A stretch of 64,000 nt of DNA from Shigella phage ESh17, in sequence record ON528727; one strand, written 5' to 3'. Below the pieces are notes generated by a model. The model did not search any database. It saw only the letters and a program-made list of their open reading frames with translations, and was not told the DNA's origin. Both the position numbers and the translations under genes were made by a program. This document shows, piece after piece, positions 56,616 through 60,392 of this stretch (its first letter is position 1; the number at the start of each line of letters is the position of its first letter).

Positions 56616-56623
56616 TATTTATA
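56616..56623 (-). promoter_or_regulatory. late promoter (TATAAATA) for t
   Basis: Plus-strand TATTTATA immediately upstream of the t start on the minus strand. Confidence 0.55.
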
Positions 56624-57170
56624 CGTAATGCTTGAATAAACGCTTATACCAAGGTTTCCGTTCTTTTTCAGGCCATGAAGGGAATTCACCACCTAAATGC
56701 TCATGCTTTTCTAAAAGAGCAAAGAACCGCTTAAGGTTTTTATAATAGAATTTTTCCTTTTTATTCGCGACAGAAGCTTCAATCATATTATTTAAAACTT
56801 GGAATTCTTTGTATAATTCTTCAATTTTTCTATTGCGAATTAAAACGCGTTTATATGTTTCGTCTTCTTTCCAACCGTCATCAGTCCATATATCAAATTC
56901 GCCGGGCTCATCAAAGGTTATACCAACCGGGCTTCCAATGTCACTTATAAAAATTTCTTCTTTATTAAAAGTCCATGCTCGTTTGCCGCGATGGTCTTCT
57001 TCATAAATCCAATCTTGAGTACGTTCATCAAATACAACTGCGTATCCTTCTTTAGGTTCTAAAGGTTTTTTAATTGTTGAATGAGCAGGAAGACCGAGTC
57101 CTTTAACCGGTTTGTAATTTTCTTCTTTGTAAAATTCTTTAGTGTCAAAATAATAATGATATATTTTCAT
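56619..57170 (-). CDS. 38: gp38 (T4-type tail-fibre assembly chaperone)
   Basis: 183 aa; sequence recalled as T4 gp38 (short chaperone type, not the long adhesin type). Confidence 0.85.
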   Translation of the reverse strand: MKIYHYYFDTKEFYKEENYKPVKGLGLPAHSTIKKPLEPKEGYAVVFDERTQDWIYEEDHRGKRAWTFNKEEIFISDIGSPVGITFDEPGEFDIWTDDGWKEDETYKRVLIRNRKIEELYKEFQVLNNMIEASVANKKEKFYYKNLKRFFALLEKHEHLGGEFPSWPEKERKPWYKRLFKHYV

Positions 57171-57197
57171 ATTCAGAAGGGGCCGAAGCCCCTCTCC
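57171..57197 (-). promoter_or_regulatory. structured translation-initiation region of gene 38 (hairpin between ribosome-binding site and AUG)
   Basis: Minus strand reads AAGGAG - A - GGGGC-TTCG-GCCCC - TTCTGAAT - ATG. Confidence 0.6.
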
Positions 57198-60100
57198 TTA
57201 TGCTAAACGAACGATATAGTTAAAAGCGATGTTTTTAACCGTGTTTTCTGTATTACCTGTACTATTTACAGTGATAGTATGACCATGCGAGCCAATTGCT
57301 ACCGTGTGGGTATGAGCACCGATACCTACAGTATGGGTATGAGCACCAATACCTACTGTGTGAGCATGGTTACCTGTAGTGCTTGTAGTACCAGACCAAG
57401 TATGGGTATGAGCACCGTCTGAAGAAGTTTTGGCTATATTCGACCCTGCAGTAGCACCGCTCACAGATCCGGTGATTTTAGCGTTGGCGTTTGCACCTAC
57501 ACTATTATATCCGTCATAGAATATGTTATTGGGTATGCCGGCTTGTAACTGAGGACCTGAGCGCGCATGTTGGTGTGCACCAGCAGAACTCGTAGTACCG
57601 CTTACAGTATGAGAGTGGTTACCTGTGGTATTGCTAGTCTTAGTGCCATAGTCAAAGCTACTTGTCGTCTTAGTACCATAATCAAAACTCGACGTAGTTT
57701 TAGTACCCAAGTCAGTACTTGAAGCCGATGCACTATGGCTATGAGCCTTAACACCATCGGCTTCTGCGCTTAATACAGCTCGACCACTTGGTTTACCTTT
57801 AATAGTTTGCCCGCGCATATCTGGAATTACGCCAGATGGGTAAGCCATAGCCAATTTTGGGTATGCAGACTTATCAAAAGTCTGGCCTTCCATAATAGCG
57901 TAACCGTCAGGAGGAGTATCCGTTGGCCATGGAATAGGAGCACCGATTGGGTAACTCGATACAATATCGGTTTTAAGTGATTCAATTGTACTGTTTAAAT
58001 TAGCAAAATTGCCAGAACCACCTGTAATATTGCCGTCTGTACCTAAATAAACTGAACCCCCAGCAGAAACACGCTTAGGAGATATAAAATCACCATTTTT
58101 GGTAAATTCCCAACCTAAATCCTTTATAATAGCGCCAGTCGAACCGCCATCGCCGCCTTCATGATAATGAACTCTGAAGTTACCGCCGTTAATTAGAGTT
58201 CCCAGAGAATAACAACTGTTTCCTTGGACATATCGCTGTTTCAAAATAGGAACGTAAGTACTTGTATCTGTGCGATTAATATTCATATAGAATGGAGCAC
58301 GAACGTTTTCATTATTTTGTGAAGCAAAAGACCCTGCACCAGCCGGGCGAACTGTGTCAGTACATTCAGCATCAATATAAGCTGCTTGTCCTACCTGCAT
58401 ACGGTAATTAGGAGAAATGCGACTATTACTAGTAACAACAACAAGTTTGGTATCGTTGTCCACAGTAATCATATTACCGCCAGCGCCATCATCGCCTAAC
58501 GTAACAGAATGGCGCATTTGTACCATACCATTATTAAGACTAATACTAAGTGGGCGGAGATTACTTATTCCACCACTTTCACCGGCATCTTTAGGAGTCG
58601 GGATAATATGTAATGCTGTTTCTGAGCGACGGAAAATAGCACCGTATTCGGCATTCCAAATTCTTAATGCATCAGCAGTTCCACCGAATTTAGCTTGTCC
58701 GTTTACTGACATGCCATTATTAACACTCAAAGAAGATTCGGTTGTAATAGAACCAGAAGCAACAATACTACCTGAAGTTAATAAACCACCATTAACTCGG
58801 AGTTGAATAGGCCCGACAGTCGAACCAGGCGCAGGAGCTACACGTTGAGAATAAAAATGGTAACCTTGCCCATCACCTACCTCAAAAACTGTTTCACGGG
58901 AACGATCGCCAGATGCGTTAAATGAATTACCCCACGCTTTAACAGTTACATAGCTTTTATTCTGCCCAGCACGAGTACCGCCTTCCCACAAAATTTGCTT
59001 AGTACCATCAATTGTAGTAGTTGGAGCGAATGTTAGCCCAGCAGTAGAATTATTAGCTGCTAAATATATGCCATTATATATTGAAAGCTGCTTAACAGAT
59101 GTAATACCGCCATCAGCATAAAACATTACATTATTAGAGCCAGTTACCAATTTCAAAATACCCGGATTAACTTCCATACCTTTCCGAGTATTAATATTAG
59201 TTTTGCCTTTACCACGGAAATAGTGGTTCATTTTTCCGCCTGAGTTATAGCCAATATGCGTCTGGCCGTCTCCAGCAGCGTTTTCATCAGCCTGTGTTTG
59301 AACTGATAAAAATGCAGCGTTCGTTCCAGGCATAATCCATGTGGTGCCTTGGTCTTCTGAACGTCCAAATAATGCTTTACGAGTACTACGGAAACTGTCA
59401 GGAGTAATAGATGCAACAGACAATCCGGAACCAACTAAATCATAAACACCGGTTTTTTGATAGCGTAAACCAGTCCCGTTATCACCTAGAGCCAAATAAG
59501 CACCGAATCCTAATGCGCCACCATTACCATAATCGCTCGATGGAAAATCAGTAGTCATAGTGCCTAATGCAAGACTATTGCGGACAATCATCCGACCGTC
59601 ATTACGAATACCAAATTGTTTTGAAATAGGAGTAGAACCGGTCCACCAAGACATTTCATCAGCTTGGCCTGATTGAGCAGTACAAAGCTCATGCCATATG
59701 GTACCGCCTGATTTAGCGCGAACTTTACGAAGATAGTTTACTCCGTTAGTTTCACCGGTGCCTGGGTATACGTAGTTAACTAATGAATCCGTATCATATA
59801 CACCAAAGGCTTTGCCACCGTGAATAACTGTATCAGCTGCAATGCGTTTTGTTACTAACGAATCTGATGCTAAAATACGATTGGCTTGAAATTCACCGCC
59901 GTTTATAGAACGGAAATAGAATTCGCTATTAATGGTGCTTCCTGTTCCTTGTCTAACCCTAAGGCGTATTTCACCGTCAGTTGTAGTTTGAGGACGAGCA
60001 TATATAACGCCTCGTTCAGTGCCATCGGCATTTTCAAACCATAAATGGGCATTTGAGGCATCATTTGATGCTCTTGTATAAAACGAACCTTGCAATGCTC

Positions 60101-60392
60101 TAAAAACTTGAGCTGAAATACTACTACCAGCGGTAATCTGGCCACTTGTGGAAAAATTTCCAAAATTGTTTATTGGTCCATTGACGCGTAAAGTTCCATC
60201 AATAGTTACATTTCCACTGATATTACCGCCAGCGGAAATGCTTAAATCAATGATATTTCCTGAATCATCTTTAGTAAAAATTGTTCTATCTTTTAAGTTT
60301 ATAGCCAATTCACCTTCGGCTAATACTGAAGCAGCAGGACGTGCACCTGCGGTTTTGCTTCTTTTAAATTGTATTTGTTTTAAAGTAGCCAT
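57198..60392 (-). CDS. 37: long tail fibre distal subunit gp37
   Basis: 1064 aa; Gly/Ser/Thr-rich beta-fibre sequence; C-terminal His-x-His repeats. Confidence 0.9.
57275..57375 (-). repeat. tandem 27-nt repeat encoding GAHTHTV(G/A)I His boxes in the gp37 tip
   Basis: About 2.5 copies of GTGTGGGTATGAGCACCGATACCTACA-like units on the plus strand. Confidence 0.6.
57630..57730 (-). repeat. tandem repeat encoding [10 protein letters not shown] units in gp37
   Basis: About 2.5 imperfect copies of a roughly 27-30-nt unit (CTTAGT(G/A)CCATA(G/A)TCAAA(G/A)CT ...). Confidence 0.55.

Follow-up and report, generated by a model that had tools for sequence, protein, structure and literature searches.

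The two tandem-repeat tracts near the 3' end of gene 37 of Shigella phage ESh17 (sequence record ON528727; the window is the whole 64,000-nt stretch of DNA that was analysed) are most probably, at odds of about four to one (roughly 0.8), the outgoing and returning halves of a single histidine/metal-stapled needle of the TuIb type, one rung longer than the needle of phage T4. Across 188 distinct domains of the same family, the number of units in one tract changes in step with the number in the other, with a single exception, and the tracts appear to be coupled structural rungs rather than independent slippage tracts. The domain and the allele have already been well studied; what is added here is the rule by which the two tracts are coupled, which was not found stated in the literature searched and which follows directly from the published structure.

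On the minus strand, the ORF at 57198..60392 encodes gp37, the distal long-tail-fibre subunit. Aligned over its full length with T4 gp37, it has 743 identical residues in a mosaic identity profile, and many phage records matching this ORF are annotated 'long tail fiber distal subunit'. The span 57198-57770, in which the repeats lie, makes up its last 190 codons and stop codon. An earlier note, made from the sequence alone, correctly gave the protein 1064 aa against 1026 aa in T4 (NC_000866); of the 38 aa by which it is longer, insertions of +10, +15, +3 and +9 fall in the C-terminal domain, with a net +1 elsewhere in the full-length alignment. Gene 38 follows after a short intergenic sequence with a predicted RNA fold of -15.8 kcal/mol (z = -2.67). 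No Pfam family matched gp38 at E <= 0.01, and its identity was fixed by direct comparison with T4 gp38, which the T4 record labels 'tail fiber assembly'. At 183 aa and 99% identity to the T4 chaperone, gp38 is not a T2-type adhesin. The T holin gene comes next on the same strand (Pfam PF11031, E = 5e-116), and the order 37-38-t is the same as in T4. The genes and their boundary, in window coordinates, are:

57198..60392, minus strand: gene 37, long tail fibre distal subunit, 1064 aa (ORF list; stop codon included)
57171..57197, minus strand: intergenic 37/38, with GGAG and a C(UUCG)G hairpin before the gene 38 AUG
56619..57170, minus strand: gene 38, T4-type tail-fibre assembly chaperone, 183 aa (182/183 residues identical to T4 gp38)

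The earlier note's placement of a T4-type receptor-binding end at this site is supported by an end-to-end alignment with the crystallised T4 tip: the last 300 residues match PDB 2XGF (2xgf_A) at E = 1.3e-96 in a phmmer search against the PDB (query 23-300 to chain 2-242), and the match spans the whole crystallised fragment, with the insertions located. The collar at the base of the needle matches PF07484 at E = 2.1e-11 (44.1 bits against a cut-off of 24). In T4, seven iron atoms line the needle, and each HxH motif helps to coordinate one of them (PMC6957217). All seven T4 motifs (at residues 883, 915, 929, 966, 980, 989 and 998) align to an HxH motif here, and one more is present, making eight in the domain (aa 884, 926, 940, 995, 1009, 1018, 1027 and 1036). 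By homology, then, these boxes are predicted to be of the metal-coordinating kind, as had been suggested. From the base of the needle to the C terminus, the domain is laid out as follows:

57801..57944, minus strand: phage tail collar domain, aa 817-864, base of the needle (Pfam PF07484; aligned to the 2XGF collar)
57726..57749, minus strand: His box H1, KAHSHSAS, aa 882-889, base of the outgoing strand (identical to T4 residues 881-888)
57645..57734, minus strand: three outgoing 10-residue units, aa 887-916 (TRF 30-nt repeat; a 10-aa insertion relative to T4, which has one unit fewer)
57561..57623, minus strand: His boxes H2 (GNHSHTV, aa 924-930) and H3 (GAHQHAR, aa 938-944), aligned to T4 H915/H917 and H929/H931
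57411..57566, minus strand: variable tip or head, about aa 943-994, 18 residues longer than the T4 tip and unrelated to it in sequence
57396..57416, minus strand: first returning His box H4, GAHTHTW, aa 993-999 (aligned to T4 H966/H968)
57267..57374, minus strand: four returning 9-residue His-box units, aa 1007-1042 (TRF 27-nt repeat; unit table)
57201..57266, minus strand: C-terminal tail of 22 residues, running back into the collar (kept throughout the whole family)

The two outgoing boxes H2 and H3 lie 14 residues apart. The tip beyond them, presumably the receptor-contacting part, shares only 18% identity with that of T4 over a 50-column block and contains the insertions of +15 and +3. On either side of it, alignment with T4 revealed one more unit in each tract here, in the returning one a GAHTHTVGI box, so that the repeat number differs from that of T4; in the returning tract the DNA alignment identifies the second unit (57321-57347) as the one missing in T4.

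Both tracts that the earlier note had described in the last 190 or so residues are present. The outgoing one contains two exact copies of a 10-residue FDYG unit (aa 897-906 at 57675-57704 and aa 907-916 at 57645-57674) followed by a partial unit, TKTSNTT, and the returning one contains four GxHxHxVxI units (aa 1007-1042), the last of which reads GSHGHTITV. Tandem Repeats Finder (TRF) reports the corresponding DNA as a 30-nt repeat of 2.4 copies at 57635-57707 (76% matches, score 83) and a 27-nt repeat of 2.6 copies at 57292-57362 (81% matches, score 100). The description of these copies as near-identical in DNA was wrong. The two FDYG units share 21/30 nt, and all nine differences are synonymous, including switches of serine codons between TCG and AGT; the longest exact run is 5 nt in register and 8 nt at the repeat offset. 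Between the two GAHTHTV units, 22/27 nt agree, and the longest exact run reaches 14 nt. Adjacent units are thus 70% and 81% identical, short of the near-perfect identity expected of a slippage-prone repeat. Because of the nine synonymous differences and the serine switches among them, the FDYG duplication must be old, and a recent duplication in this genome is ruled out. Compared with the single unit of T4, the two FDYG units share 25/30 and 24/30 nt, and neither is singled out as the extra one.

The relation between the tracts can be derived from the T4 structure. The T4 stem runs out along residues 882-931 and back along residues 960-1009, with contacts between G921 and F970 and between H929 and G964 (PMC6957217); an outgoing residue p therefore faces a returning residue q such that p + q is about 1891. 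In this register the seven T4 HxH motifs fall along the axis in the order H1, H7, H6, H5, H2, H4, H3, at spacings of 8, 9, 9, 6, 8 and 6 residues, and the three nine-spaced returning boxes fill the histidine-free outgoing stretch that is exactly the site of the TDLG/FDYG units. Applied to gp37 of ESh17, the same register gives eight sites at spacings of 8, 9, 9, 9, 7, 7 and 7 residues. For ESh17, the register and the eighth metal site are predictions extended from T4, and the stem would by this estimate be about 9-10 residues per strand, or roughly 3 nm, longer than that of T4. The outgoing insertion measures 10 residues and the returning one 9; one residue must be absorbed somewhere. An AlphaFold2 model of the last 240 residues as a monomer, built from a 38-sequence alignment, had a mean pLDDT of 50.6 and a pTM of 0.21, too low for the model to be of use, as is to be expected of a chain that folds only as an intertwined trimer.

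The proposed mechanism builds on this geometry. The chain would leave the collar, form the tip and return antiparallel to itself, giving a needle-shaped receptor-binding end, and in the trimer each HxH motif would provide two histidines of the six that surround a single axial metal ion, which in T4 is iron. The 10-residue xDxGTKTxSx units of the outgoing strand and the 9-residue GxHxHxVxI units of the returning strand would lie directly opposite each other as parts of the same rungs, and three outgoing units with four nine-spaced boxes would yield eight HxH sites spaced evenly along the axis, 7-9 residues apart. The extra outgoing unit would then face the extra returning box as one added rung, and the longer stem would bear a different and larger tip, most likely one that binds OmpC. 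Since the tracts must stay in register, the number of units could change viably only in both at once. Single-tract changes are expected to break the register of the metal sites, and viable variants to carry matched changes.

Matched changes are what is found in the family. Sequences were pooled from 80 IMG/VR loci, 120 database proteins (nearly all of them fibre fragments of E. coli prophages, used in the motif counts) and 150 representatives of 50%-identity clusters drawn from 1344 matches at E <= 0.001. In the 188 distinct domains, the gap between H1 and H2 tracks the number of terminal nine-residue His-box spacings: a gap of 32 goes with two spacings (97/97), a gap of 42 or 41 with three (81/82), a gap of 52 with four (6/6, with the protein P0225 counted as 19+33), and gaps of 62 and 73 with five and six, respectively (one case each). 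These counts are taken over sequences of shared ancestry, among which the independent coordinated changes are few but number at least about six. The few leftover domains result from faulty parsing, for instance where H2 has been lost or an HxH motif lies upstream. By inspection, the outgoing strand consists of xDxGTKTxSx units, and their count increases together with that of the spacings. The distal pair of boxes ('14...14') has both members or neither in nearly every domain, a handful being incomplete and unscorable. Such one-for-one co-variation fits two tracts that face each other in an antiparallel stem.

The single exception (L005) is a 10.5-kb metagenome contig with three outgoing units and only three nine-spaced boxes. 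Its outgoing strand and tip type are as in ESh17, and exactly the second His-box unit (27 nt) is missing, the endpoints of the deletion lying within a 14-nt exact repeat, GGTGCTCATACCCA. On the T4 register, two of its metal sites would be two residues apart. The contig could represent a variant that is viable though exceptional, a defective one, a product of recombination with a T4-type 3' end, or a chimera made during assembly.

The allele itself is widespread. The last 903 nt of the gene are 100% identical to Shigella phage ESh18 and 98.8-99.6% identical over the same end to vB-Eco-KMB23, R5505, Ozark, teqhad, teqdroes, AdolfPortmann, FriedrichZschokke, FelixPlatter and others. Gene 37 of phage TuIb (X55191) is 99.5% identical over its 806 nt, with one amino acid difference in the domain. 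This TuIb gene was sequenced by Montag, Hashemolhosseini and Henning in 1990, and the TuIb-type version, known since then, is a real but ordinary finding; the record of teqhad already carries a repeat_region on the His-box array. TuIb, ESh18, teqhad, teqdroes, Ozark and the BASEL phages FelixPlatter, AdolfPortmann and FriedrichZschokke have the same unit numbers, the same tip and the same gp38 chaperone as ESh17. They differ in the N-terminal and middle parts of the protein, which are mosaic (gp37 has 1079 aa in ESh18 and 1091 aa in teqhad, against 1064 aa here), and of the full gene these allele-sharing phages cover only 72-76% at high identity. FelixPlatter (Bas40), whose gp37 end is 98.9% identical to that of ESh17, loses infectivity on an ompC mutant and is restored by complementation (PMC8594841), and TuIb is listed as a user of OmpC/LamB (PMC9659904). 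The near-identity of the gp37 end to those of TuIb and FelixPlatter makes OmpC the likely receptor of ESh17 as well.

The earlier note had proposed that the tracts are substrates for slippage or unequal recombination that could change copy number and host range. As independent hot spots whose copy number in the population tunes host range in the manner of a contingency locus, the tracts make an improbable case. Tandem repeats are indeed detected by TRF, the number of units differs from that in T4, the two FDYG units of a 171-kb T4-like contig (L004) are identical at 30/30 nt, which suggests a recent duplication or gene conversion, and L005 lacks exactly one 27-nt unit between exact repeats. 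In ESh17, however, the copies are only 70% and 81% identical in DNA and the FDYG duplication is old; all 60 matching phage records listed, at 78-100% identity, have exactly equal lengths with no net change, so that copy-number polymorphism was found in none of these close relatives and the only variant found is the metagenome contig L005; and the tracts co-vary one for one, so that single-tract changes seem to be weeded out by selection. Over evolutionary time copy number has changed (stems of two to six or seven outgoing units, L004, L005), which is partly in line with that note, but diverged DNA, constant length and coupled tracts speak against a ready substrate for slippage. The effect on host range also divides. 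PMC7002106, citing Tetart 1996, reports that T4 phages with duplications in gene 37 gain Yersinia as an additional host, but the T4 point mutations that alter receptor use lie in the tip, at residues 939-955 (PMC5221442, PMC6957217), and not in the stem, an argument for stem repeats that determine geometry and not specificity.

Two further explanations bear on how the added rung arose and whether it matters. The motifs may act as conserved DNA linkers within which recombination, between phages or between phage and prophage, exchanges the tip cassette together with its specificity, the number of repeats being incidental; this proposal is about evenly balanced between acceptance and rejection. 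T4 and ESh17 are very highly identical up to the first unit and again from the third His-box unit, with a tip block of only 18% amino acid identity between, and the same domain is found on the tail fibres of many unrelated E. coli prophages. Tetart and colleagues (1998) also reportedly described swaps of adhesin specificity through recombination between conserved motifs. Linkers leave the matched unit numbers on two strands and the five classes of stem length unexplained, and recombination within them is compatible with the metal-stapled needle, where it is included as the likely route of change, so that it is no true alternative. By that route the whole central cassette would be exchanged by recombination in the conserved DNA of the edge motifs. 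Between T4 and ESh17, 120/123 nt are identical at the 3' end, the 45 nt that precede the first unit contain one difference, and at the right edge the T4 His-box unit is identical to the third unit here (27/27 nt). Near-identical flanks around an unrelated middle fit replacement of the whole cassette, which would alter both tracts at once. The remaining explanation, that the extra units are a neutral length polymorphism and the extra HxH motif binds no metal, deserves little credence: T4 with seven boxes and TuIb-type phages with eight share the use of OmpC and the chaperone, but both duplicated units are fully conserved in amino acid sequence despite saturated synonymous change, which implies purifying selection, and none of the long-form relatives examined has lost a histidine of the added box.

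The C-terminal domain of ESh17 can be compared with several known systems. The tip of T4 gp37 (PDB 2XGF, Bartual et al. 2010) has the collar, HxH needle and C-terminal tail in common with it, and differs in having one outgoing unit and one returning box fewer and a tip that is 18 residues shorter. Fibres that share this C-terminal domain have been described as a 'T4- and lambda-based RBP family' (PMC9659904). The side tail fibres of lambdoid, Mu-like and P2-like E. coli prophages have the same collar and needle and obey the same pairing rule, at 56-67% identity to ESh17, but their N-terminal shafts are different, and their stems contain between two and six or seven outgoing units, the distal 14/14 box pair being present in some and absent from others. 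It is possible, if only as a tentative generalization, that throughout this family the number of outgoing xDxGTK units equals the number of nine-residue spacings, with an optional distal 14/14 pair, a rule that is not known to have been spelled out before. If it is true, needles of a chosen length could be designed rationally by inserting or deleting matched rungs, and the natural classes of stem length might have to do with the distance that the tip has to cover through O-antigen or capsule before it meets a porin.

Which hosts a T4-like phage infects is decided by its fibre tip, a main target for engineering of host range. For this DNA, the outcome is mostly a correct annotation: a TuIb-type gp37 that probably binds OmpC, with eight predicted metal sites instead of seven. 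The distal fibre of T2 and T6, encoded at the same position in the genome and serving the same role in host recognition at the end of the fibre, is built differently: its adhesin is a protein in its own right, about 260 aa long and with glycine-rich motifs (PMC3157838), whereas in ESh17 gp37 itself bears the tip and gp38 is a chaperone of 183 aa.

The distal subunit of the long tail fibre, gp37 (window 57198-60392, minus strand), is a mosaic in comparison with its T4 counterpart: identity per 50-column block fluctuates between 0.96 and 0.18, and examples of block values are 0.96, 0.34, 0.94 ... 0.36 ... 0.98, 0.62, 0.18, 0.56 and 1.0. High-identity coverage of the gene by any one phage record is at most 96%. 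The gene is followed on the same strand by that of the tail-fibre assembly chaperone, gp38, with a short structured junction between them:

57171-57197, minus strand: GGAG, then a GGGGC-UUCG-GCCCC tetraloop hairpin, between the gene 37 stop and the gene 38 AUG
56619-57170, minus strand: gene 38 (gp38), 182/183 identity with T4 gp38

Although gp38 is nearly identical in the two phages, the receptor-binding needle of gp37, which it has to fold, has eight HxH sites in the window and seven in T4, and the gp37 tip sequences are unrelated. Stem length and tip sequence evidently make no difference to the chaperone. The intergenic hairpin (-15.8 kcal/mol, z = -2.67 by RNA folding) and the preceding GGAG make up the ribosome-binding site that is classic for T4 gene 38: the hairpin draws a distant Shine-Dalgarno sequence near the start codon. 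The 5' end of gene 38 also contains 1.9 copies of a 15-nt tandem repeat (TTTGTAAAATTCTTC, 85% matches, window 57111-57139), which is short and probably trivial.

Two IMG/VR loci with the same fibre-tip domain, L004 and L005, differ from the window in their repeat units:

L004:1501-2397: UViG 2706795401_000001 (170.8 kb)
L005:1501-2370: UViG 3300030021_000020 (10.5 kb)

The pair of FDYG-type 10-residue units of L004 matches at 30/30 nucleotides, in contrast to 21/30 in the window, which points to a recent event in the L004 lineage, either duplication or gene conversion. L005 has the sole mismatched needle found in the family comparison. Its outgoing strand counts three 10-residue units and includes two TKT(T/S)SSFDYG units, but its His-box units are one short, with exactly 27 nt deleted at the 14-nt repeat GGTGCTCATACCCA. 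It could be an assembly chimera, a genuine variant, or a recombinant whose end is of the T4 type.

The longest needles of the family belong to the database proteins P0164, with six nine-spaced boxes and five outgoing units, and P0216, with seven nine-spaced boxes and a gap of 73 residues; they would be helpful extremes for structural examination of the rule that outgoing units and nine-residue His-box spacings co-vary in number. Seven other database proteins (P0034, P0042, P0043, P0071, P0072, P0075 and P0077) contain the fibre-tip domain under the source names 'terminase large subunit', 'tape measure protein', 'ClpP-related head maturation protease' or 'short-chain fatty acid transporter', which are probably propagated mis-annotations or the products of mis-called or fused gene models.
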